DNA of 64,000 bases from an uncultured Planctomycetia bacterium (lineage in GTDB: Bacteria > 4484-113 > JAGGVC01). The stretch is taken from assembly GCA_964388445.1 (NCBI GenBank), contig CAYMAI010000009.1:32807-96806 (forward strand), read 5' to 3'. Under the pieces are notes generated by a model. That model was not told the DNA's origin. It ran no database searches and saw nothing but the letters and a program-made list of their open reading frames with translations. The position numbers were made by a program, and so were the translations under genes. Below, one piece after another: positions 1,734 to 64,000 of the stretch (position 1 is its first letter; the number at the start of each line of letters is the position of its first letter).

Positions 1734-4700
1734 ATGCGCCTTGTCCACATTCCCGTTATCGTCTGTCTTTTCGCGCTTTTCGGATGTTCGTCCGGAAGCC
1801 GTACGTTCACCGGCGGCATCCCGGCGGAAAATAACGAATCGGTCAAACTGCCGAGCATCGCTTCCGCGCCGGGAGATGCGGGATTCATCCAAGTCTCGCC
1901 AGGCGCCGTGGCCGGCGAGGATTACATCCCCGGCGAAATCCTAATCGGGTTCGGCGCGGATATAAAGGCGCGTGAATTCGAAGGAGCCATAACCGGTTTC
2001 AATCCGGCGTCGGGAGCGGCGTTTGTTCCTCCGTCCAATCCGGGGCTATATCAAAACAGCACGCACGCGGCGTTCGCGCGTTTTCTCGCGGCGGAATTCA
2101 ATATGAGCGTCATTCCGAATTCGGAAGCGTACGTCGAAGAATTGAATTTTTGCACGTACAGGCTTGCGGGCGGGGAATCGGCGGAGGAAACCGCAAGGAA
2201 AATCAGGCTCAAGTATCCGTCCGAAGTCAAGTATATTCAGTACAACCAAATTTTCAGGCCGATGTTTGAACCGGACGACCCGGAGTATTTGAACGGAAAC
2301 CTATGGGCGATGCCGAAAATCGAAGCGAACGTGGCGTGGGACACGACCGCCGGTGCGGGTGCGACGGTCGCGGTAATCGACAGCGGAATACGCGAAACGC
2401 ACGAAGACCTTAACTGGATTCAGCCGCCGGGTTACATTCTCGACCTAGTGAACAACGACACGATTCCGGACGACGAAAACGGCCACGGCACTCACGTCTG
2501 CGGCACGGTCGGCGCAATCGGCAATAACGGAAAGGGCGTCATCGGCGTCGCTTACGAATGCGACATTATTCCGATTAAAGCGCTGGGTTCGCAAGGCTAC
2601 GCCACATCCGGCAGCGTGGCGACCGGAATCACTCTGGCGCGAATTCTCGAAGCGGATGTAATAAATCTAAGCCTCGGCTCGTATTCCGCGGACAGGGCGA
2701 CGTTCGAAGCGTCGGTGAACGCGTGGAACGCGGGTCTAGTCATTATCGCCGCCGCCGGCAACGACAGCACGTCGAATTACTTTTTATATCCGGGATCGCA
2801 TCCGCACGTAATAAACGTCGGCGCGACAACGAGCAACGATAACCGCGCAAGCTATTCTAATCGCGGAAGAACGCTTGACATCGCGGCGCCGGGCGGCGGT
2901 ACGTTCGGCACCGGAAGAATTCGCAGCACTTCGTTCGGCGGATTCACGGGATACACGTGGATGAACGGCACCAGTATGGCGAGTCCGCACGCCGCGGGCG
3001 CCGCCGCATTGATACTCGCGAACGACCCTACGCTTACGAACAACGAAGTTCGCGGACTTCTCGAAGGCGCGGGCGACGACGTTCTTAACCAAACGGACTG
3101 GCGCGTTTTAACCAAAATCCTGCGGCTCAATCCAGCGAAATCGCTTTCCGCATCCGTAACGGATTTTCCCGAAGTGAACATTACGAGCCACACCGACGGC
3201 GACGCGGAATCGGGCAACTTTACGCTTTCCGCGAGCGTGACCGCGCCGAACGGCGGCGAGAAAATGCGCTGGTACATCGACGGCGAATACATCGGCCATT
3301 CGACCGACGCGCCATGGGAGCGTGCGATAAACGTCGTGGGAATGATACCCGGAGTGCACACTTTCACCGCGGAAGTTATCGACGCGGCGAATCTGCATGG
3401 TTATTCGTCCGTGGAAATCAACATCGCGCTTCCGTCGATGGATACGCCGTATTGGACTACCGTACAGGATCCGCCGTTTACGGACGAATGGAACGCGCTC
3501 GACTATGCCGGCGCATCGAGGTGGCAGGAAGTTGAAAAAACGCCGGGCGAAAAAATGCTCTATTTCGGCGACCCCGACAAATCCGGCGGGCCGGGATATT
3601 ATAACGACGACACCGACGCGCTTCTTTCTCCGAACTTCAATCTCGCGGGCTTAACTTCGCCGTTTTTCAAATTCGAAATGGCGTTCGAGCTTGGCGCCTA
3701 CATGATTATGACTCTGCGGGTTATCGACAGCTCCGGCAAAGACGACATAATCGGATACATCGGCACTTCGAGCGGCACGATCAGAAATCCAAACTGGCCA
3801 AATCTGTCGAAGTACGAAATCAACCTAAGCGCGTATCAGGGGAACGTGGCGCGCGTCGAGTTTTGGATGCAGCGCTATTCGCAAAGCGTCGGGCTCGGCG
3901 AGGGCGTGTACATCGACAACGTTCTCGTTTCTGAAACTTCCGCGCAGCCGATTGTGCAATTGGTTTCGCCCGACAGAAATTCTGTTATATACGGCGAAAA
4001 GGAAATCGTTACGAACATAACGGACGACAAGGGCATCGTTATAAAGGCGGAACTGGTGGAGACCGTGTCGGGCGACGTGCTTCAGACCCTGACGAACGAG
4101 CCGTTCACGTTCACGCTCGACACCACGGCCTATCCAGACGGGCTGCGCGAGTTTCACATCGTCGCTTACGACGAAATTTCGTATATGGGATTTTTCACGC
4201 CGACGGCGGTCTCGATGTTCCAAGTAATACACAATACCCCCGTCGTGATAGACGAATTCGCGCCGGTTTACGGCACGGTCGCGACGCCGGTAACGCTTAG
4301 CGGAAGCGGGTTCGGCGATTTTTACGCGGGCGGTATCGGGCCGACGGCGTACAGACATTCGTTCCTGTTTTTCACGGGCGAAGACGGGCTTGTCGAAGCC
4401 GAAGTGTCCGAAGAAACCTGGACGCAATCCTCGATTACGGCGGCGGTGCCGGATGGCGCGATAACCGGCCCGATTTACGTCGTCATCGGCGACATCGAAA
4501 CGCCGACTCCGGGCGATTTCGCGGTGGGCGAAGTGGCGGGATTCGCGTTCGTCGAACCCGCCGGCGGCGCGCTAATGCCGATGAACGGCTCTCTGAATTT
4601 CAAACTCACGCCCCAACCGTTCGCGTCCGCGGTCAGCCTCGCCTGTTTGGACGAGTCCGGCAACGCGCTGGGGATTCCATTCCCGAAAATCACTTCTTTC

Positions 4701-5009
4701 GACGACATACAGTTTCTGCTCGGCACGATTCCGTTTCCGAAAAACGGAAAATACACGCTCAAAGCGACGGCGTTCGCCTCATCCGGCGACCTGATAGCCG
4801 AAGTCGATTTTTGGGTGGAGAAACTTCGCGGCGATTTCAACGGCGACAGATTCGTGACGATGGCGGACCTCGATTTCCTACGCGCGCGGCTTTGGAAAAC
4901 GCCCGCCGACCCCGAATGGATTCCATATCTCGACGTTGACCGAAACGGAATAATCGACGAAGGCGACGCTACAGCCGTCGGATATTTTTACCTTCTCTCG
5001 TCCGGCTAG
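1734..5009 (+). CDS. Subtilisin-like serine protease (peptidase S8) lipoprotein with long C-terminal extension ending in a dockerin-like module
   Basis: Signal peptide with lipobox (LFALFGCSS) after GGAGG RBS. D/H/S catalytic triad motifs present (AVIDSGI, HGTHVCGTVGA, GTSMASPHAAGAAAL). C-terminal DFNGDRFVTMADLDFL...DVDRNGIIDEGDATAV resembles paired Ca-binding dockerin repeats. ORF track start 1659 is probably upstream of the true ATG at 1734. Confidence 0.85.
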   Translation: MRLVHIPVIVCLFALFGCSSGSRTFTGGIPAENNESVKLPSIASAPGDAGFIQVSPGAVAGEDYIPGEILIGFGADIKAREFEGAITGFNPASGAAFVPPSNPGLYQNSTHAAFARFLAAEFNMSVIPNSEAYVEELNFCTYRLAGGESAEETARKIRLKYPSEVKYIQYNQIFRPMFEPDDPEYLNGNLWAMPKIEANVAWDTTAGAGATVAVIDSGIRETHEDLNWIQPPGYILDLVNNDTIPDDENGHGTHVCGTVGAIGNNGKGVIGVAYECDIIPIKALGSQGYATSGSVATGITLARILEADVINLSLGSYSADRATFEASVNAWNAGLVIIAAAGNDSTSNYFLYPGSHPHVINVGATTSNDNRASYSNRGRTLDIAAPGGGTFGTGRIRSTSFGGFTGYTWMNGTSMASPHAAGAAALILANDPTLTNNEVRGLLEGAGDDVLNQTDWRVLTKILRLNPAKSLSASVTDFPEVNITSHTDGDAESGNFTLSASVTAPNGGEKMRWYIDGEYIGHSTDAPWERAINVVGMIPGVHTFTAEVIDAANLHGYSSVEINIALPSMDTPYWTTVQDPPFTDEWNALDYAGASRWQEVEKTPGEKMLYFGDPDKSGGPGYYNDDTDALLSPNFNLAGLTSPFFKFEMAFELGAYMIMTLRVIDSSGKDDIIGYIGTSSGTIRNPNWPNLSKYEINLSAYQGNVARVEFWMQRYSQSVGLGEGVYIDNVLVSETSAQPIVQLVSPDRNSVIYGEKEIVTNITDDKGIVIKAELVETVSGDVLQTLTNEPFTFTLDTTAYPDGLREFHIVAYDEISYMGFFTPTAVSMFQVIHNTPVVIDEFAPVYGTVATPVTLSGSGFGDFYAGGIGPTAYRHSFLFFTGEDGLVEAEVSEETWTQSSITAAVPDGAITGPIYVVIGDIETPTPGDFAVGEVAGFAFVEPAGGALMPMNGSLNFKLTPQPFASAVSLACLDESGNALGIPFPKITSFDDIQFLLGTIPFPKNGKYTLKATAFASSGDLIAEVDFWVEKLRGDFNGDRFVTMADLDFLRARLWKTPADPEWIPYLDVDRNGIIDEGDATAVGYFYLLSSG

Positions 5010-6502
5010 GCTTCGCTTTCGCTCTTTGCGCCGTCTTCTTCCGGAATCCAACGGGGAACCAGATTGCGCGCCGCGCCGGTTTCGTCCGGATTCACGATTT
5101 GCAGTTTCGAGCCGTCCAGCTTTTTGAATCCGTCCGGGTCTTTCTTGATTTCCTCCGCGAACCTAAGCATTACGCCGCAGAAATTGTCCAGCGTTTCCTT
5201 GCTTTCGGTTTCCGTCGGCTCTATCATCATCGCCTCGTGGACGATTAGCGGAAAATATGTCGTCGGCGCGTGAATTCCGTTTTCGAGAAGTTTCTTGGCG
5301 ATTATTTTCGCCGTCACTCCGTAATCGCGTTTGAAGTTGTCCGCGCTGGCCACGAATTCGTGCATACAGTGTGAGAGAAATGGAATTTCGAATTCGCCCT
5401 TTAGCCGCGCCTGAATGTAGTTTGCGTTGATAATCGCATTTTCGGATATACGCTTAAGCCCGTTTTTTCCGTGATGAACGATGTATGTATAGGCTCGGAC
5501 AAGAACGAGGAAGTTGCCCCACCACGCCTTCATTCGTCCGATGGTTTTTTCCGGCGTTTTGACCAGCGCGCCGCCTTCGCCGCTTTCGAATATCGCGCCC
5601 GGCAAATACGGCGCGAGAAACGCCTTAACGCCTATCGGGCCTGCGCCCGGCCCGCCGCCGCCGTGCGGAGTCGAAAACGTTTTGTGCGTGTTTAAGTGCA
5701 TCAAATCGAAACCCATATCGCCCATGCGAGCGATTCCGAGAAGCGCGTTAAGATTCGCGCCGTCGTAGTATAAAAGCCCGCCCGCGTCATGAATGAGTTT
5801 GGCGATTTCCAAAATGTGCGTTTCGAATAGACCCAAAGTGTTTGGATTCGTGAGCATTATTCCGGCTATTTTATCCGCGCCATGCTTTTCGATTACGGCT
5901 TTTATAGCCGCGGGATCGGTCAGCCCGTCTCCGCAACTGACGACCTCGGCCACCCGAAAACCCGCCACCGCGGCGCTCGCCGGATTCGTTCCGTGCGCGC
6001 TGTCCGGCACGATCATCACGTCGCGTTCCGGCTGGCCGATTTCGTCGAAATACTTGCGGAAAACCAGCATTCCGGAATATTCGCCTTGCGCGCCGGCCGC
6101 GGGCTGAAGCGCGAACTCGTCCATGCCGGTGATTTCGCAAAGCCACGCGGACAAATCGGCGAGCATTTCCACCGCTCCCGGTACTGTCTCAACGGGCTGG
6201 GATGGATGTATCTGCGAAAATCCCGCCGCCGCCGCCGCCGCGTCGGTAAGCCGGGGATTGTATTTCATCGTGCAACTGCCGAGCGGATAAAACCCGCTGT
6301 CCACGCCGAACGTGCGCTGAGACAAGCGCGTATAGTGGCGCACCACGTCTAGGTGCGATACTTCCGGCATCGCAAGCTCATGAGCCAGCGCAAATTCCGC
6401 GTCCGCCTTGAACTCCGCTTCGAAATCTCTCGCCGGAAATTTGACGCCGCGGCGGCCGGGTACGCTTTCCTCGAAAATCAATTTGTCTTTTACGTGGGTC
6501 AT
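5006..6502 (-). CDS. gcvPB: Glycine dehydrogenase (decarboxylating) subunit 2
   Basis: 498 aa with PLP-lysine region HLNTHKTFSTPHGGGGPG typical of GcvPB. 4-nt overlap with gcvPA. Confidence 0.95.
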   Translation of the reverse strand: MTHVKDKLIFEESVPGRRGVKFPARDFEAEFKADAEFALAHELAMPEVSHLDVVRHYTRLSQRTFGVDSGFYPLGSCTMKYNPRLTDAAAAAAGFSQIHPSQPVETVPGAVEMLADLSAWLCEITGMDEFALQPAAGAQGEYSGMLVFRKYFDEIGQPERDVMIVPDSAHGTNPASAAVAGFRVAEVVSCGDGLTDPAAIKAVIEKHGADKIAGIMLTNPNTLGLFETHILEIAKLIHDAGGLLYYDGANLNALLGIARMGDMGFDLMHLNTHKTFSTPHGGGGPGAGPIGVKAFLAPYLPGAIFESGEGGALVKTPEKTIGRMKAWWGNFLVLVRAYTYIVHHGKNGLKRISENAIINANYIQARLKGEFEIPFLSHCMHEFVASADNFKRDYGVTAKIIAKKLLENGIHAPTTYFPLIVHEAMMIEPTETESKETLDNFCGVMLRFAEEIKKDPDGFKKLDGSKLQIVNPDETGAARNLVPRWIPEEDGAKSESEA

Positions 6503-7860
6503 TTAGCCACCTCTTCGGCTATCGCCGCCGCGAATTCGTCCAAATCTTCCTTTTTGTGCTGTTCGGTCGTGGCGATTAGCCACATGTTCGCTGCGCCGCC
6601 GAAATCGGACAGCCGGATTCCGGGCAGAAATCCTCTTGCTACGAGTCTGTCGAAAACCGAAGCGCAATCTTTGCAGTCGAGCTTTATCGTGAATTCGTTG
6701 AAAAACTCCGAGCCTGGATTCGCGTTCGTTATGCCGTCTATCGCGGTCAGCTTCGCTTCCAAATAGTGCGCCGCTCCGCTTTCAAGTGCGCCGACTTCCC
6801 GAAATCCTTCCTTGCCGATTGACGACAGATAAATCGTCGCGGTAAGCGCCATGAGCGCCTGATTCGTGCAAATGCTCGAATTCGCCTTGTCTCGCCGTAT
6901 ATGCTGCTCCCGCGCCTGCAAAGTCATTACGTAAGCGGTTTTGCCGGTTTCGTCAACGGTTTTGCCGATTAGCCTGCCCGGCAGGAATCTGACTAGGTCT
7001 TTCGTGCAAGAGAGAAAGCCCAGCGCAGGCCCGCCCCATCCCATCGGGATGCCGAGAGGCTGCCCCTCGCCGTACGCGATGTCCGCTCCGAAATCGCCCG
7101 GACGCTTTACATGCGCGGCGCAAAACGGGTAATAACCGATTGCGAGCAGCGTTTTATATTCGCTGCAGATTCCGGCAAGTTTAGATATTCCTTTTTCGAA
7201 ACAGCCATAGAAATTCGGTATCTCGACGGCTACGCAAGCCACGTCGCCGCCGGAAAGCAGTTCCCGCAATTTCTCCGAATCGATTTCGAAATGTTCGGAG
7301 TCTTTGTACGGCAGCGGAATACGCTCCATTTTCCAGCCGACGTTGTACGTATCGAACGTTTCGATGTGGTGCGGATGCAGGTGATTGCTGACGATTACTT
7401 TCCTGCGTTTCGTCGCGCAACGGGCGATGTTGAGCGCGTCGGCGCATGCGGATGCGCCGTCATAGCTCGACGCGTTCGAAACCGGAAGACCCGTTATTTC
7501 GGAAATGTAGGTTTGATATTCGAAAATCGTCTGCAGCAGGCCTTGGCTTACTTCCGGCTGGTACGGAGTGTACGCGGTCACGAACTCCGAGCGGGTCGAA
7601 AGCTGCGCGGAGACGGGCGGAATATAGTGGTTGTATATGCCGCCCCCCGCGAACATTTTGCCGGGCGGGAACACCGTGTTGCGGGCGGCAAGCGCGCGCA
7701 GTTTTTCAAGCGTTTCCATTTCGGAAAGGCCTTCCGGCAGCCGAAGCTCGCCGGAGCGGACATCGGCGGGAACGGCATCGAGCAGACTTTCGAAATCCGC
7801 GACTCCGATTTCGGCGAGCATCTCCTTGCGCTGTTCGCCGGTATTCGATATATAAGGCAT
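6499..7860 (-). CDS. gcvPA: Glycine dehydrogenase (decarboxylating) subunit 1
   Basis: 453 aa, GcvPA-like throughout. GGAG RBS 8 nt upstream of ATG. Confidence 0.95.
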   Translation of the reverse strand: MPYISNTGEQRKEMLAEIGVADFESLLDAVPADVRSGELRLPEGLSEMETLEKLRALAARNTVFPPGKMFAGGGIYNHYIPPVSAQLSTRSEFVTAYTPYQPEVSQGLLQTIFEYQTYISEITGLPVSNASSYDGASACADALNIARCATKRRKVIVSNHLHPHHIETFDTYNVGWKMERIPLPYKDSEHFEIDSEKLRELLSGGDVACVAVEIPNFYGCFEKGISKLAGICSEYKTLLAIGYYPFCAAHVKRPGDFGADIAYGEGQPLGIPMGWGGPALGFLSCTKDLVRFLPGRLIGKTVDETGKTAYVMTLQAREQHIRRDKANSSICTNQALMALTATIYLSSIGKEGFREVGALESGAAHYLEAKLTAIDGITNANPGSEFFNEFTIKLDCKDCASVFDRLVARGFLPGIRLSDFGGAANMWLIATTEQHKKEDLDEFAAAIAEEVAK

Positions 7861-7961
7861 GTTTACTCCAAAGAGGCTTGTCGGACGGCTGATTTTACCC
7901 TCGAAAACGGGCGCCGCAACCCATGTGACGCTTACGCCCCGTTATCACATGCGCCGCGCCT

Positions 7962-8690
7962 TTATTCCGGGCCGGACACCTCAAGTTCGCTTATGCTGAC
8001 GTCGTTCCACTTTCCGGTCGGATAAACCGATTTGATTTTTATTTTGAATTCTTCACACGTCACTGGCGGCTGAACGGGCACGGATTGTAGCGCCGGCGAA
8101 TCTTCGAATTTATGCGATACGGCGGTTCCGTCCGGAAATTCGAAATCCACTTCTTTAATCCGGTAGTTCAATTTGAAAATGTTGCCATATTTTTCATGCG
8201 TGGTTTTCGAAAAACCGGGCACGAGCGAAATCGCCGCAATCGCCGCCTCTTCGCGCAAATACACGGCGAGCCAGGCGTCCTCTCCCTCCTTGTATTCCGC
8301 GCTCCAAGCCGTTTCTTTATCTCCGTCGAGCATTTTGGACGGTTCATAGCTTCCGAACGTTGTCGGTTGGCTTTCTGCGTACGCTTCGATTCGGTCAATT
8401 CTCGGCGTGATTATTATCTCGACTCCGGGCGGGGGAATGTCTTCCGCATCGAGTCCGGAGTGTGCGGATTCGTCAATCGCCGCCGCGGCAAGCTTGAGCG
8501 AGCGCAGCTCTTCCAGTTTCGGTTTGGTATTGAAATAATAAATGACGAAAAATGCCAGAACGACGAAGAAACCCGCGCCGAAAACTATGGAAAGCGCCAA
8601 CAATGTCGTTCCGTGCGCGCCGCGTTCTTGCTCGTAGTACTCCTCTTCAAACACGTCCGCGTCTTCAACGCGCGGCTCCAATTCGCTCAT
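7962..8690 (-). CDS. Membrane-anchored protein with extracytoplasmic F5/8 type C (discoidin)-like domain
   Basis: AAGGAG RBS then ATG at 8690 (MSELEPRV). Acidic N-terminus, one TM (LLALSIVFGAGFFVVLAFFVIYYF). C-terminal region shows discoidin-like pattern (MLDGDKETAWSAE...AWLAVYL...ISLVPG). Longer ORF start 8744 would overlap cdsA. Confidence 0.6.
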   Translation of the reverse strand: MSELEPRVEDADVFEEEYYEQERGAHGTTLLALSIVFGAGFFVVLAFFVIYYFNTKPKLEELRSLKLAAAAIDESAHSGLDAEDIPPPGVEIIITPRIDRIEAYAESQPTTFGSYEPSKMLDGDKETAWSAEYKEGEDAWLAVYLREEAAIAAISLVPGFSKTTHEKYGNIFKLNYRIKEVDFEFPDGTAVSHKFEDSPALQSVPVQPPVTCEEFKIKIKSVYPTGKWNDVSISELEVSGPE

Positions 8691-8706
8691 CGGAAACTCC
8701 TTTCGA

Positions 8707-9588
8707 TTACCGGCTGACGAAGCCGTATATAAAAAACGCCGCAACCGCGATGCTTACCGGAAGAAAACTGTCCAGCTTGTCCAAAACGCCGCCGTGTTCC
8801 GGAATGAACTTTCCGCTTTCTTTCCGCTCGCTCCTTCGCTTTATCACCGACATCATCAAGTCGCCCAAATGGCCGAATCCGGCGATAAACGCTCCCATAA
8901 ACGCATAGCCCAATAGCTGGACCGTATCCGGGCGGGCATCCAAGGGCGCGATTATATAAAAAAACCACGGCGTGGCGAATGCCGCGGCGAGCATTCCGCC
9001 GAAAAGCCCTTCCTTCGTTTTTTTCGGGCTCACTTTCGGCGCAAGCGGCGTTTTACCGAAAAGCCTTCCCGTGAAAAACGCCCCGGCGTCCATTCCCCAA
9101 GACAAAATGCAAACCAAAAACCAAAGATAATCGCCGCCAAGCGCATAAACCATCGCGAAAGACGCCATTCCGGCGAACAAGTATCCGAAGCCGAAATAGA
9201 CGTAAAGCGCCTGCTGAAGCGAAAAGCCGCCGTCCGGGTAATTCGAAACGGTAAGGTATGCCGCCGCGAAAAAAACGAGCATATACGCCAACGTCGCGGT
9301 GAAAATGAAAAACGCCGCCGCGGCGAACGCGTCCTCCGACCTGGGCGCGAAAATCGCCAGCTGTACGATGCAGGTAACGAACGCGGCCGCGAAAACGAAC
9401 TTGAGCGCGCTCGATATGTGCTTTTCCGCTTGAGGATTCATCAATCCGATAAACTCGGACGACGCAAAGACGAAAACCGCCGCAATAAGCGCAAGGCCGA
9501 TGTACGTGCCGGCCATCAGCGCCGATATTGCGAGCACGCCGGCAACGATACCGATGGCGATTCTGCTCACGAAACCAGTATAGCGCAC
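8707..9588 (-). CDS. cdsA: Phosphatidate cytidylyltransferase
   Basis: Multi-TM protein with CdsA signature near C-terminus (HGGVLDKLDSFL). Sits in conserved uppS-cdsA context. Confidence 0.9.
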   Translation of the reverse strand: MRYTGFVSRIAIGIVAGVLAISALMAGTYIGLALIAAVFVFASSEFIGLMNPQAEKHISSALKFVFAAAFVTCIVQLAIFAPRSEDAFAAAAFFIFTATLAYMLVFFAAAYLTVSNYPDGGFSLQQALYVYFGFGYLFAGMASFAMVYALGGDYLWFLVCILSWGMDAGAFFTGRLFGKTPLAPKVSPKKTKEGLFGGMLAAAFATPWFFYIIAPLDARPDTVQLLGYAFMGAFIAGFGHLGDLMMSVIKRRSERKESGKFIPEHGGVLDKLDSFLPVSIAVAAFFIYGFVSR

Positions 9589-60485: not shown

Positions 60486-60830
60486 ATGCATATTTTCGAA
60501 CTATATTCCGCGCTCGGGGACGAGATTACGTACCGGATCGCGATTTTGCTCGCCAGGTATCGGTTGAGCGTGGGCGAGATTGTTTACGCGCTCGAACTCA
60601 AACAGCCTCACGTCTCGCACAAACTGGCCAAACTCAGGAAATACGGATGCGTGGCCGCCGTCAGGGAAGGGCGGCAAATCTATTACGAAATGCGGCGGCC
60701 GTGCAAAAGCGTGGTGATTTCCGGCGACGAGAGATGGCGGGAGTTGCACCCCGACGAAAGCGCCGCCTGCAGCCGCGACCTCGCAAAGCTCTCCGAAATC
60801 GTCAAAGACCTCGCCGCACGCCGCCACTGA
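60486..60830 (+). CDS. ArsR-family-like winged-helix regulator
   Basis: MHIFELYSALGDEITYRIAILLARYRLSVGEIVYALELKQPHVSHKLAKLRKYGCVAAVREGRQIYYEM fits the ArsR/SmtB HTH. Confidence 0.65.
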   Translation: MHIFELYSALGDEITYRIAILLARYRLSVGEIVYALELKQPHVSHKLAKLRKYGCVAAVREGRQIYYEMRRPCKSVVISGDERWRELHPDESAACSRDLAKLSEIVKDLAARRH

Positions 60831-60883
60831 CGGCGAAAAGCCACAGCCGCATCGCAAAACCGTGCCGCTTATCGCCCGCTTTT

Positions 60884-61202
60884 CTTGGGAGTAAGCCACG
60901 GAAGTGGCTTCTTTATATAATGCACGGAAGTGCCGCAATGAAAATTCCAGCCTTTTGCCTTGGGAGTAAGCCACGGCAGTATTTTCGCTATGTATTCCTC
61001 GGAATAAGCCAGCTTGGGAGTAAGCCACGGAAGTGGCTTCTTTATATAATGCACGGAAGTGCATTTGATAAAAAAACCGATCTAAAATCCACTTCCGGTA
61101 CCGCCTTCCGTCAAAGTCCCTCCCGGCGCATTTGCCCGACGCGCTATTCGCCGCACTTCCGTGCGGCGCATAAAGAATTTACTTCCGTAAATTACTCCCA
61201 AG
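60884..61202. repeat. Intergenic repeat array: three direct units beginning CTTGGGAGTAAGCCACGG (60884, 60959, 61013) plus one inverted unit (61152-61202); at least six GGAA/TTCC-centred palindromes
   Basis: AAGCCAC-GGAA-GTGGCTT at 60893-60910 and 61022-61039. (A)TGCAC-GGAA-GTGC(AT) at 60922-60933 and 61049-61064. CGCAC-TTCC-GTGCG at 61152-61165. AATTTAC-TTCC-GTAAATT at 61176-61193. Confidence 0.85.
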
Positions 61203-61382
61203 CGCGACCGCGGCCGCTGCCGCTGCGCGCGATGAGATACGTATCGCCCGTCGTGGTTTCGGCGCGCTCGTAGCCGTATGTATTCGATGGCAGGCCGCCG
61301 GGGGAATAGTCGTAATCGTATTGTTCGAGCGTGCTAAAGCGGGCCGTCGTCGTCCTTCAAAACGTGCTGCGTCTTAAAGCTA

Positions 61383-62219
61383 TTAATCATGGTGCACATT
61401 CTTGCTTCCATTACTTGCAACGTTTTTTTGATTAATTCCACGAATTGCGTATCCAGACAGAAACGCCACCACTCCTAGTATTATCATCATTATTGCCCAA
61501 ATATCATTCAGTTTAGATTTTGTCTGTACAATATTAGGCATACTTTTGTCTTGCAACAACGTCATTCCTTGGGTCTGAGAATCAGGATCGAAGCTTTGCC
61601 CAGGGGCATAAATGTAAACAATGTAGCGCGATACATTTTCATTGCCGCTCACTAGCGATGAAATAGAAGGAGAATACCACTCCAATACATCTGTTTTCGC
61701 AATGTCAACAAAATCCAAGTGTCGCGTAACAAGTATATATTTACCGGGATTAATGTCTGGCACAAAAAGCAGTTCTAGGGTCGGTTCATAAATATCTTGA
61801 AACTCAACATTATTAAATCCTGTATCAGCATACATATCGTATTTTGCCATAAACTTAACAACTCGTATAGTATAGGTGTAGTCTAATTCCTCGATAATGC
61901 TGTTTAACTTTATGTTAGATTGCAATGCCGAAAGATATTTATTATATGGTAGAAAATATACTTTGGTATGCTGAGACTCAATACCAGATGCTTTTAATAA
62001 AATAGGGGATCCTACTTCAGCTATATTGTTCATAACACCCTCAATCTGGTATGATGAATCGGTAGTGATACGGATACTACTATACTTACTCGCCAATGTC
62101 GCGTAATTTGGCCTGTTTGCGTTATTACTTGCAGTCGCAAACATACATAATATGTATGCTAGCATTAGAACCATTGAAAGTATAATAAATCTCATAATTA
62201 CTAAACTGCCGAAAAACAT
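61383..62219 (-). CDS. Hypothetical membrane-anchored protein encoded in low-GC island
   Basis: 278 aa, N-terminal TM/signal (MRFIILSMVLMLAYILCMF), large Asn/Ser/Tyr-rich domain, C-terminal TM. Local GC far below window average. Confidence 0.5.
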   Translation of the reverse strand: MFFGSLVIMRFIILSMVLMLAYILCMFATASNNANRPNYATLASKYSSIRITTDSSYQIEGVMNNIAEVGSPILLKASGIESQHTKVYFLPYNKYLSALQSNIKLNSIIEELDYTYTIRVVKFMAKYDMYADTGFNNVEFQDIYEPTLELLFVPDINPGKYILVTRHLDFVDIAKTDVLEWYSPSISSLVSGNENVSRYIVYIYAPGQSFDPDSQTQGMTLLQDKSMPNIVQTKSKLNDIWAIMMIILGVVAFLSGYAIRGINQKNVASNGSKNVHHD

Positions 62220-63514
62220 TCCTCAAAACAGCACTTAATGAGTTGAACGGCAAGGTTGTTTAAATTCCCTGTAGTTGGACCCGCCAAGTGCGACCAGCAA
62301 CCTGGATGGCAATGGTGCATTAACTCGTGTGCCAGCCACATAGCAGGGCTGCAAAAATCGGCCAAATTGCCGACTGCCCCGATTCCAGGTTTTTTGCAGC
62401 CAAGAATATAGCCTTGAGCCCTTGGCGTACAATCTGGGGTAAAACATGCACCGCAGGCAACCATTACTGCTTTGGGGTCAAAAGCACAGCCTTCGCATTT
62501 CCTGATTCCATAACAATTACTTTGACTCGGTACGGGGAAAAAAAAGCGGTTAACTTCGACGCAAATGAACTTTCCTGCGCCTGCCGATAACCACTTAAGC
62601 ATACATAACAAGTCGCTCTCCAGCAACTTGTACTGACCAACAGATCCACTTGACGGTAAATCCATTGGTTTATTCCTTAACGAATCAAGCCAGCAAAGAA
62701 TACAATGTTTTAATTTGGTAGCCGCGTTAAGATAAAATGAAAATGAATTTGCTGGGCATAATATTGGCATAGAAGAAAGTTCGACCTGGGAAGAAATACA
62801 GGTTCTAACGTCACAGCAAAAGGAAAGAAACTCTTCTTCAGTTTGCGCTTTTGGTCCTTCACTTGAGCACCGCCGACAATTTGATTTCGGATAATTCTTA
62901 CCTCCTCCGTCTAGTCCTTCTCCCCCTCCTCCCGTTCCTCCCGGCCCCGTTCCGCCGCCGCCGAAGCCGACCGTCGGCGTGACGGACGCCTGCGGGCGAA
63001 GATTGCCGATTTGAAACATTCCATGGGGGAAGAAATCGCCGTATCCTCTTCCGCCCGGATTAAGGTCCCTGCCCAGCATCCAGCTTTTGACGCGCGCACC
63101 TTCGTACATCAGGTTCGCACCGTTCGCAAGGCAGGATTTGCGCAAGTGGAACTTGCGCCGTGGAGTGCGGCGGTCTTGCCGCCGCCCTGTTTCCGCAGGC
63201 TTGCCTGCGGGAGACGCCGGAGCAAGCTTAGGCATTGACGGCGCGAGCAAGCTCCCGCACTCCATGGAAACGCTTCGCGTTTCACGAGGACGAGCGCGAC
63301 TCGCCGCTATATCGGATTTTTCCTGAAATGGATTTTGCAGGCTGGAAGCATGCGCTACGGACATTATTGGAAATGGATTTTGCAGGCTGGAAGCCTGCGC
63401 TACATACGAACTGCGCGCCTTTTGTGAAATAGCCCCAGATTTAAAAAAACGCTTCGGCATGTTTTCTCCGCCGGGGAAAGAATACCATGACATTGCAGTA
63501 ATTGCAAAGTTCAT
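62201..63514 (-). CDS. Cysteine-rich protein with C-terminal HExxH (zincin-like) motif; 5' boundary uncertain
   Basis: C-terminal ~230 aa (low-GC DNA 62201-~62900) have >20 Cys and WLAHELMHHCHPGCW. Upstream part (high GC) is Gly-rich (GFGGGGTGPGGTGGGGEGLDGGG) then low-complexity R/P/S-rich sequence that may not be coding. No convincing RBS found. Confidence 0.4.
   Translation of the reverse strand: MNFAITAMSWYSFPGGENMPKRFFKSGAISQKARSSYVAQASSLQNPFPIMSVAHASSLQNPFQEKSDIAASRARPRETRSVSMECGSLLAPSMPKLAPASPAGKPAETGRRQDRRTPRRKFHLRKSCLANGANLMYEGARVKSWMLGRDLNPGGRGYGDFFPHGMFQIGNLRPQASVTPTVGFGGGGTGPGGTGGGGEGLDGGGKNYPKSNCRRCSSEGPKAQTEEEFLSFCCDVRTCISSQVELSSMPILCPANSFSFYLNAATKLKHCILCWLDSLRNKPMDLPSSGSVGQYKLLESDLLCMLKWLSAGAGKFICVEVNRFFFPVPSQSNCYGIRKCEGCAFDPKAVMVACGACFTPDCTPRAQGYILGCKKPGIGAVGNLADFCSPAMWLAHELMHHCHPGCWSHLAGPTTGNLNNLAVQLIKCCFEECFSAV
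63325..63403. repeat. Tandem direct repeat, two ~34-bp copies with 45-bp period (GAAATGGATTTTGCAGGCTGGAAGC[A/C]TGCGCTAC)
   Basis: Second copy contains perfect palindrome GCAGGC-TGGAA-GCCTGC (63382-63398). The same repeat yields duplicated SSLQNPF on the minus frame. Confidence 0.85.
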
Positions 63515-63639: not shown

Positions 63640-64000
63640 CTACACTTCGATCAGCACGGCGTCGCCTTGGCCGCTGCCGCTGCAGATGCAGGCCACGCCC
63701 TTGCCGCCGCCCCTGCGCCTAAGTTCGAATGCCAGCGTCATTATGATCCGAGCCCCGCTCATGCCGATCGGGTGGCCCAGCGCGATCGCGCCGCCGTTCA
63801 CGTTCACCTTGTCCTCGTCCCATTCGAGAATCTTGCCGCACGCAAGCACCACTGCGGAAAACGCCTCGTTGCACTCGAACAGGTCTATGTCCGATACCTT
63901 CAGCCCGGCCTTTTCGAGCAGCTTTTTCGCCGCGTGCGCCGGCGCAATCGGGAACTGATACGGCTCCATCGCCACGTGGTCGTGCGCGATTATTTTGGCG
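63640..64000 (-). CDS. Acetyl-CoA C-acetyltransferase (thiolase), C-terminal fragment; gene continues beyond window end
   Basis: ...[21 protein letters not shown]...[16 protein letters not shown], the conserved thiolase C-terminal active-site region (His/Cys). Confidence 0.85.

Follow-up and report, generated by a model that had tools for sequence, protein, structure and literature searches.

The 64,000-nucleotide (nt) stretch of contig CAYMAI010000009.1 analysed here (the window) belongs to an uncultured Planctomycetia bacterium and carries near one end a low-GC island, which forms part of a candidate orphan Rhs-type toxin/immunity cassette. Between positions 61383 and 62900 the GC content is 0.398 (39.8%), compared to a mean of 0.549 (sd 0.021, minimum 0.488) in the remaining 1.5-kb segments upstream of 61200 (z = -7.2), and no second island of comparable GC is found in the 64 kb. 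The island has a sharp upper edge, where the 60-nt GC falls from 0.73-0.80 (62910-62999) to 0.32-0.47 (62700-62909), and the lower edge lies at approximately 61380. The initial annotation had noted this drop, a Cys-rich HExxH region at the end of a long minus-strand open reading frame (ORF), a native-GC and Gly-rich 5' part of the same ORF, and an overlapping gene for a 278-amino-acid (aa) protein with N- and C-terminal transmembrane (TM) segments. All of these features were borne out: upon recalculation the GC content was not uniform; the last 235 residues of the long ORF comprise 23 Cys and WLAHELMHHCHPGCW; the Gly-rich run GGGGTGPGGTGGGGEGLDGGG is encoded by native/high-GC DNA directly 5' of the GC drop; and the 278-aa protein, whose gene shares 19 nt with the long ORF, harbours hydrophobic 19-mers solely at aa 1-32 and 235-263. 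The conserved cassette exceeds the span first noted and extends from ~63507, at a promoter-like site, to ~60819, at the end of a 3' inverted-repeat block (Table 1).

Table 1. Features of the cassette and its immediate neighbourhood, in the numbering of the window.
Feature	Position	Strand	Description
Promoter-like site	63479..63507	minus	TTGCAA (63507-63502), 17-nt spacer, TATTCT (63484-63479)
Long ORF	62201..63514	minus	437 aa; the NCBI start (ATG at 63460) gives 419 aa (P0001)
Shine-Dalgarno sequence and start	63458..63469	minus	GGAG (63469-63466), 5 nt, ATG (63460-63458); begins the 419-aa protein MPKRFFKSGA... (P0001)
Leader	63131..63457	minus	Low-complexity, basic ORF segment
Rhs core tip	62960..63130	minus	(L)ANGANLMYEGARVKSWMLGRDLNPGGRGYGDFFPHGMFQIGNLRPQASVTPTVGFG; conserved end of RHS-repeat shell; ~37 proteins, 20 genome loci
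Gly-rich linker	62900..62962	minus	GGGGTGPGGTGGGGEGLDGGG; boundary of native-GC and low-GC DNA
C-terminal toxin domain (putative), zincin-like	62204..62899	minus	~232 aa, 23 Cys; HELMH 62315-62329; possible third ligand in WSH; C-terminal CCF.ECF
Probable cognate immunity gene	61383..62219	minus	278 aa; 19-nt overlap with toxin ORF; alternative start M9 5 nt past toxin stop
rhs YD-repeat relic	61228..61373	minus	Native GC; ..STLEQYDYDYSPGGLPSNTYGYERAE..; translation STLEQYDYDYSPGGLPSNTYGY
Conserved 3' block	60819..61230	minus	~400 nt; arm 61150-61202 versus arms 61012-61062 and 60884-60936; three direct copies of one arm
Thiolase gene	63640-63975
ArsR-family regulator gene	60486-60830

The native-GC part of the long ORF (GANLMYEGARVKSWMLGRDLNPGGRG...) corresponds to the final ~60 shell residues in a small clade of RHS/YD-repeat proteins. 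An exhaustive phmmer search against 1.84 billion protein cluster representatives yielded 39 hits in all, about 37 of which match query residues ~10-66 only (GANLMYEGARVKSWMLGRDLNPGGRGYGDFFPHGMFQIGNLRP); the hits P0009 (43% identity) and P0010 (36%) match the Cys-rich domain (P and L numbers designate related proteins and loci, respectively). When 185,579 species-representative genomes were scanned using the family alignment, 20 loci were retrieved, mostly in metagenome-assembled genomes (MAGs) of Planctomycetales/Planctomycetia; an earlier genome scan with orphan-specific peptide patterns had produced chance matches only, and the broader alignment was needed. Longer relatives contain RHS/YD repeats N-terminal to the tip (P0030 with PF05593 at E 5.5e-12; P0012, P0016, P0021, P0022 and P0024 by eye). 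Full-length relatives are composed of an RHS/YD-repeat shell of ~2000 aa ending in the tip ...LMYEG.RVKSW.LGRD.NP.GRG...GNS[VI]NN, which is followed by an exchangeable C-terminal toxin and then by the immunity gene for it. At the MAG locus L016 (4853-11128), for instance, the tip occupies aa ~1716-1781 of a 2091-aa protein (PF05593, E 4e-38; TIGR01643, E 8.7e-22; DUF6531), and a C-terminal domain of ~310 aa and an overlapping 276-aa ORF follow.

The conserved segment therefore forms the terminus (“core tip”) of RHS-repeat toxin shells, and the window ORF represents a displaced tip. The codon-position GC of the tip segment (0.61/0.55/0.70) is native-like, and the window ORF is devoid of YD repeats, as expected for an orphan. 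The window copy of the tip lacks the closing GNS[VI]NN motif, and ~170 nt of Rhs tail upstream of the tip are deleted compared to the otherwise near-identical cassette at L034. In this clade the tip reads GRD.NP.GRG...GNS[VI]NN in place of DPxGL; the clade is non-canonical and is not filed here as canonical Rhs. A reading of ANLMYEGARVKSW as the H-X9-DG tail of a DUF1559 pseudopilin was dropped in view of the YD-repeat relatives.

The low-GC part of the ORF encodes a Cys-rich domain with the features of a zinc peptidase. When the window domain is aligned with P0009, P0010 and the C-terminus of P0022 (26% identity), the HExxH motif and 11 Cys are invariant, the His of the WSH motif is kept in three of the four domains, and the window copy retains every Cys that is invariant among its homologues. 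The structural model has the alpha+beta fold of a zincin, and HExxH lies on its active-site helix. Fold comparison gave deuterolysin 1eb6 (8.9), Wss1 (6.7), the ERAP1 catalytic domain (6.6), peptidyl-Lys metalloendopeptidase (6.5), Pra1 (6.3) and AsaP1 (5.8), with more zincins ranking below AsaP1; closest are the extracellular M35 proteases. M35 aspzincins (deuterolysin 1eb6, peptidyl-Lys metalloendopeptidase 1g12, AsaP1 2x3a) are likewise small extracellular HExxH peptidases, and they are disulfide-bonded. Membership in M35 was nevertheless rejected: the GTxDxxYG motif is absent (the four homologues read TTGNLNNL in the window, THGNLDSL, NQGDFNML and STGAYNRV), a conserved WSH His is present instead, and Pfam M35 is not matched; at 11-16% identity and with a model of moderate quality, the similarity is a resemblance of fold. 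Given the absence of GTxDxxYG, we class the domain as a zincin of no described family.

Searches of Pfam, NCBIfam and PDB sequences returned no match for the toxin ORF, the partner protein or the C-terminal profile, apart from hits of the Gly-rich part to single-chain antibody (scFv) linkers, which are low-complexity noise. At E <= 1 Pfam contained nothing for the window ORF, nor did it at E <= 0.1 for the C-terminal domains of nine relatives; Pfam-A presumably includes the Tox-MPTase families. No housekeeping peptidase, an outcome that would have spoken against a toxin, was matched by the Cys-rich domain. The 437-aa ORF shows no signal peptide or hydrophobic segment (maximum 19-mer hydropathy 1.25), the first Met within the low-GC part lies ~40 residues inside the domain, and among the phmmer relatives the domain is found solely behind the Rhs core tip.

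The junction between tip and domain bears the marks of modular exchange. In the 40 tip-sharing sequences the segment closes with GNS[VI]NN and continues into unrelated C-termini, which are mostly Cys-rich (13-37 Cys) and in 16 cases contain HExxH near the C-terminus. P0001 and P0002 are 96% identical over 97 residues, including the idiosyncratic junction RRKFHLRKSCLAN, and then diverge into different HExxH domains: beyond the shared stretch P0002 has a Cys-rich pre-toxin domain, the same Gly linker and an HExxH domain that is only remotely related to that of the window (hhalign 95%, E 4e-8). P0002 and P0006 also have the linker GGGTGPGG[STM]GGGG, while P0009 and P0010 have a related Gly run; in every case it stands immediately N-terminal to the HExxH domain. 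For this sub-family the Gly linker thus appears to be the point where low-GC payloads are exchanged, because the GC drop begins right behind it in the window, L001 and L003; a step from core tip to low GC is also present in L004 and L033. For enterobacterial rhs loci, a GC discontinuity has been described as a hallmark of dissociated tips (PMC2935791), and the low GC, seen at every related locus examined, is therefore a property of the cassette pool and provides no evidence for recent acquisition here.

In the window copy ...TPTVGFG is joined straight to GGGTGPGG, and both GNSINN and the Cys-rich pre-toxin domain, which are present in P0002, P0006, P0009 and P0010, are missing. The pre-toxin domain (~130 aa between GNSINN and the Gly linker; also in P0026) follows the pattern CCCP.TGC...GCNCC...ERC...W.CC..YC. 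It is common to cassettes with different HExxH domains and could be a translocation or processing module.

The 278-aa partner protein has an N-terminal signal/anchor segment (aa ~6-30, ATA|S) and a C-terminal TM helix (aa ~240-260), which enclose a beta-rich domain of ~200 aa; its AlphaFold2 model (mean predicted local distance difference test, pLDDT, 48) is too poor for use in a fold search. Its only relatives are P0043 (57% identity, co-linear, both hydrophobic ends kept), the C-terminal half of P0031 (27%, E 2e-15) and two ORFs that follow homologous toxin domains. The first of these ORFs, L003:1981-2835, lies 3' of the closest toxin homologue, P0009, and is weakly similar, with the same architecture and the shared motifs G..N..A..G.PI.L and VPDI..G.Y.L; the second, L033:4305-5165, comes after P0022 and is also weakly similar (hhalign E 0.004, probability just 8%). 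For two of the three homologous C-terminal domains (P0009 and P0022) the downstream gene was checked, and architecture and motifs are shared in both cases; P0006, with its non-homologous HExxH domain, has a different downstream gene, a small multi-TM ORF. The small downstream gene accordingly tracks the C-terminal domain. As homologous toxins go with homologous partners and a different toxin with a different partner, we propose that the 278-aa gene is probably the cognate immunity gene, co-variation of this kind being a signature of such genes.

The signal/anchor, the beta-rich middle part and the C-terminal anchor would place the bulk of the 278-aa protein outside the cytoplasm. An extracytoplasmic partner, together with the 23 Cys of the toxin domain, suggests the periplasm or the membrane surface as the site of action of the peptidase. 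P0031 (L004 6001-7239) has lost the toxin domain and kept the immunity-like part, its leader and core tip running in frame straight into a homologue of the 278-aa protein.

The cassette is solitary between unrelated housekeeping genes at four loci: in the window it is flanked by the thiolase and ArsR-family genes, at L001 by SurE-PAS and amidase genes, at L004 by SDR and asparaginase genes, and at L034 its neighbour is MlaE. Syntenic conservation of the locus, which would have argued against polymorphism, was not seen, as the cassettes occupy different loci. The polymorphic-toxin layout proposed in the initial annotation has gained ground through the RHS framework, the unrelated C-termini behind a shared tip and the co-varying membrane proteins. 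Regarding the traits of orphan rhs elements, the window contains a truncated core fragment without the delivery part, in which ~60 tip residues are kept. No main rhs gene precedes it at its locus, and own translation initiation signals, the lack of which is usual for orphans and not obligatory, are present: GGAG-N5-ATG and a promoter-like site recur at four loci. At L033 the classical tandem is found, which consists of the end of the main rhs gene, an orphan and a 286-aa gene.

The analysis shows the composition, homology, modular variability, co-variation of toxin and partner, and zincin-like fold, whereas toxicity, immunity, site of action, recombination and expression are inferred. Very probably the island is an orphan (displaced) Rhs-type toxin/immunity cassette, which confers immunity and stores a warhead that can be loaded or exchanged by recombination. 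The findings support a refined identity of the element, namely, a solitary orphan tip of a non-canonical RHS toxin clade rather than a full toxin gene. The cassette would then be built from a native-GC tip of ~60 codons, joined via the conserved Gly linker to a two-gene low-GC payload, comprising the HELMH peptidase-like domain and the presumably translationally coupled 278-aa protein. Carried by a full-length Rhs protein, the C-terminal domain would be delivered to a competitor, where its peptidase activity might be exerted at the membrane surface or in the oxidising periplasm, and the membrane-anchored partner would block the peptidase in the producer and its kin. As an orphan, the cassette would keep the cell immune to this toxin type. 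It would also constitute a stored alternative warhead, which the core tip/Gly linker as a 5' arm, and possibly the 3' block as a 3' arm, could bring by homologous recombination onto a full-length rhs gene or from one cassette locus to another. The orphan concept, the expression of orphan immunity genes and recombinational loading have been established experimentally for Rhs and contact-dependent growth inhibition (CDI) systems (PMC3150448; PMC3967940).

Several points weigh against the reading as an orphan cassette. No full-length rhs gene is found in the 61 kb upstream, the window stops ~500 nt past the cassette, and a recombination partner in this genome is therefore hypothetical; moreover, none of the ten large window ORFs scanned matched the RHS-repeat family. 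Every relative with the exact GANLMYEGARVKSWML tip is a leader-type orphan and none is full-length. TIGR03696 (the Rhs-associated core, PxxxxDPxGL) yielded no match at E <= 1 for the window ORF, the full-length L016 protein, P0016, P0022 or P0030, and the last 467 aa of the full-length shell (L016 type) had no PDB sequence match. The model of the toxin domain is of moderate confidence (pLDDT 60.5), and the window copy, lacking GNS[VI]NN and the pre-toxin domain, might not be deliverable even on an Rhs protein. The immunity assignment draws on the layout and on weak homology (BLASTP E 0.13; the hhalign match given above, E 0.004, probability 8%), and it is without precedent, since a 2012 census of polymorphic toxins lists metallopeptidase toxins without assigned immunity proteins (PMC3482391).

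The 5' flank of the cassette is conserved beyond the protein-coding core. The position of the promoter-like site is kept at four unrelated loci (window, L001, L004 and L034), with the -10 variants TATTCT, TACAAT, TAATAT and TATAAT, and a promoter function of the TTGCAA-N17-TATTCT site may be assumed; in a consensus scan the site scores under the 9/12 threshold. Similarity among the four loci starts ~45 nt 5' of the ATG, and the sequence further upstream is unrelated. The stretch CGGCGGAGAAAACATGCCGAA is identical in the window, L004 and L034 and near-identical in L001. The N-terminus MP[KN]RF.K.GA is shared with P0004, P0005, P0008, P0011, P0020 and P0031, and P0006 (L001) has the diverged form MPKRDSTIGA. 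As promoter-like site, Shine-Dalgarno sequence and ATG are conserved, the window orphan is, on sequence grounds, probably transcribed on its own, which would at least secure expression of the immunity gene.

The leader contains two 34-nt hairpin repeats (63325-63358 and 63370-63403; core GCAGGCTGGAAGCCTGC) at a spacing of 45 nt, which translate as VAQASSLQNPF and of which none is expected by chance. The same hairpin element is found in the leaders of P0004, P0005, P0008, P0020 and P0031, and the L034 leader has one diverged copy. Approximately 130 nt of the leader are 100% identical to L034, and in a metagenome scan a leader 21-mer occurred at four loci only, all from the same two assemblies. 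The length of the leader varies among the relatives, and the frame is open in all relatives seen. The codon-position GC of the leader is 0.60/0.60/0.51, compared to 0.63/0.41/0.69 for a native gene. Due to this lack of a native signature and the make-up of hairpin repeats, translation of the leader is uncertain. The initial annotation had questioned whether the N-terminal frame is translated; the composition of the leader sustains this doubt, and the conserved Shine-Dalgarno sequence and ATG ahead of the leader speak against it.

These features lend some plausibility to an alternative that we hold tentatively, namely, that the cassette is a self-expressed defence or addiction module. The element would be transcribed on its own account to produce the immunity protein or a toxin-antitoxin (TA)-like pair, and the truncated toxin would be made from the MPKRF start and not exported. 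Not only the initiation signals kept at four dispersed loci, but also the frame that stays open from MPKRF through leaders of widely differing length in at least seven relatives, the 19-nt overlap of the two genes and the restriction of the exact tip to leader-type orphans would be expected of such a module. Furthermore, a Salmonella orphan rhs element has been reported as a TA-like module (PMC7043789). However, the uncertain translation of the leader counts against it, the open frames are subject to ascertainment bias, as only open frames get called as proteins, and the Cys-rich domain is unlikely to fold in the cytoplasm, which renders an intracellular TA role doubtful. Self-expression is compatible with, and does not exclude, the role of the cassette as a reservoir.

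The 3' flank comprises two elements, a YD-repeat relic and a block of inverted repeats. Over 36 aa the translated relic shares 67% identity with P0033 (aa 43-78; E 2e-15). At the DNA level it is 82% identical to L033, where the matching sequence is part of the full-length rhs gene, and 87.6% identical to positions 24-128 of L013, ~840 nt upstream of the L013 core tip. Because of the latter position, the relic is, to judge from these alignments, the truncated start of the former next orphan in an ancestral array. The arms of the adjoining block measure ~50 nt, two copies being identical, and contain the hairpins GCCAC-GGAA-GTGGC and GCAC-GGAA-GTGC (GGAA/TTCC loops); none of the repeats formed by these arms is expected by chance. 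The block folds as a long hairpin (z = -6.0), an Rfam search with it gave no match, and it is kept at the window, L001, L004 and L012, the window having extra direct copies. Within ~99 kb (window, L001 and L004) its 28-mer GAAGCCACTTCCGTGGCTTACTCCCAAG occurs only beside orphan cassettes, and the other matches (L002, L005, L008 and L012) are copies of the L001 or window loci. The block could serve to terminate transcription, to stabilise mRNA or as a recombination arm. A MITE or an integron cassette was rejected for the unit as a whole: the inverted repeat is internal to the 3' block, none pairs the 5' edge with that block, and there is no integrase or tRNA nearby. All that is retained of this idea is the hypothesis of recombination arms.

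Both conserved arms coincide with the ends of assembled contigs. Seven contigs that are 100% identical to the window stop inside the 3' block (60909-60912), an eighth, L012 (99%), stops at 61223, and the metagenome contig L036, 100% identical to the window, stops at 63145, just upstream of the start of the tip (63130). The organism occurs in the metagenome assemblies JAANMU, JAANMV and JAANMW and in the runs SRR365190xx. The contig breaks indicate multi-copy or polymorphic sequence at both arms. Conserved arms that break short-read assemblies on both sides imply that such loci are systematically under-represented in MAGs.

The truncated YD fragment also bears on the possibility that the locus is decaying and that the toxin part, left over from an old rhs array, has lost its function, its frame staying open by chance, and that only the flanking repeats and perhaps the immunity gene, or nothing at all, still matter. 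Two internal deletions compared to relatives (the Rhs tail, and GNSINN with the pre-toxin domain), the toxin-free P0031, the short stubs P0003, P0004 and P0020, and the toxin ORF without an export signal would all fit decay. We nonetheless deem decay unlikely, for the 232-aa domain keeps HExxH and all homologue-invariant Cys, the 278-aa gene is intact and has a co-linear homologue with 57% identity and both hydrophobic ends, and seven contigs from several sequencing runs, which overlap the flank, are 100% identical to the window, with an eighth contig at 99%.

In a further reading the elements would be more than passive leftovers and would work independently of a neighbouring main rhs gene. 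Rather improbably, the window may exemplify a distinct class of self-contained cassettes, seeded at many housekeeping loci of one genome, which swap low-GC payloads by double crossover or gene conversion. The parts of such a cassette may be the conserved promoter and leader, the tip/Gly linker as the 5' homology arm and the hairpin-rich inverted-repeat block as the 3' homology arm. If true, these cassettes would constitute a dispersed exchange system for undescribed, periplasm-acting Cys-rich zincin toxins with membrane-anchored immunity proteins.

That the island represents an ordinary secreted metalloprotease, gained horizontally along with its membrane partner and without a link to toxin systems, is highly improbable: the low GC, the zincin-like fold nearest to extracellular M35 proteases and the many Cys, as in secreted proteins, would suit it, yet the ORF lacks a signal peptide and any hydrophobic segment, the first Met of the low-GC part lies ~40 residues inside the domain, the domain only ever occurs behind an Rhs core tip, the GC step recurs at each related locus, no peptidase family is matched, and no tRNA or integrase is nearby. 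The recently acquired secreted protease pair, offered as an alternative in the initial annotation, is thus unsupported.

Viewed as an orphan toxin/immunity cassette, the window element most closely resembles the enterobacterial orphan rhs-CT/rhsI modules of Salmonella LT2 (STM0292) and Dickeya dadantii (PMC3150448, PMC3967940, PMC2935791). Common to both are a shell-end fragment, a demarcation motif, a variable toxin and a small cognate gene, as well as the GC step at the junction, near-identical core fragments with different tips, and tandem arrays, which here occur in relatives (L033 and L039). In contrast to the enterobacterial orphans, the window cassette lies alone between a thiolase and an ArsR-family gene with no main rhs gene ahead, and it is followed by a conserved 3' inverted-repeat block. 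Enterobacterial orphans “usually lack translation initiation signals” (PMC3967940), whereas the window cassette has a promoter-like site, a Shine-Dalgarno sequence and an ATG. The demarcation also differs, since GNS[VI]NN and/or the Gly linker are found here instead of PxxxxDPxGL, and TIGR03696 is unmatched. CDI orphans of the cdiA-CT/cdiI type, demarcated by VENN, likewise combine a junction motif, a variable toxin and cognate immunity in re-loadable orphans that express immunity (PMC3150448), but they belong to a two-partner-secretion filament rather than an RHS shell and show no sequence relationship.

RHS-borne metallopeptidase toxins (Tox-MPTase1-5 and Tox-HopH1; PMC3482391) share with the window domain an HExxH alpha+beta fold at the extreme C-terminus of RHS-repeat proteins, and RHS-borne HExxH toxins have been reported from Planctomycetes, among others (PMC3482391). 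The window domain differs by the absence of a Pfam match, the 23 Cys in 235 aa, the Gly linker (plus the pre-toxin domain in relatives) and the linked candidate immunity protein, of which the 2012 census lists none (PMC3482391).

Swappable Rhs tips and orphan storage are already well established, and in this respect the window is a clear but ordinary example. New are an RHS clade, mostly from Planctomycetes-type MAGs, with another junction (no DPxGL, no TIGR03696, and the Gly linker as swap point), a very Cys-rich zincin-like family of C-terminal domains without a database family, a family of bitopic membrane proteins that are linked to these domains and are candidates for immunity factors, and orphan cassettes that occur singly at several housekeeping loci and have apparent signals for their own expression as well as a 3' repeat block that is conserved. 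As far as the libraries and literature searched show, no description exists of this type of junction, of either protein family (toxin or immunity), or of dispersed cassettes that bear a promoter and conserved arms. If these points hold, they offer a handle on how protease-type polymorphic toxins are neutralised and on how toxin repertoires are shuffled outside classical rhs arrays.

Further observations concern the 3' ends and the arrays of related loci. In the window the 3' block ends in the hairpin CGCCGCCACTGACGGCG (60819-60839), and this hairpin shares sequence with the final codons and stop of the ArsR-family gene. L004 lacks an ArsR gene, and its block closes with the same hairpin; the 3' end of the ArsR gene may therefore have come from, or been reshaped by, the cassette. 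The block of L012 (1340-1751), the same ArsR-adjacent locus in another assembly, is a mosaic compared to window positions 60830-61223, being in part L004-like and in part equipped with the extra repeat units of the window; this pattern suggests gene conversion between cassette copies. In L039 (ERZ25039527 contig_135738), rhs fragments, small ORFs and an IS3-family transposase make up an array (2959-9497), which adjoins genes for a PKD-domain protein and a type II secretion system (T2SS) ATPase. PKD-domain and T2SS-ATPase genes also lie near the single orphan of L001, in the same order and orientation as in L039, and the shared locus may be a rearrangement hotspot in related organisms.

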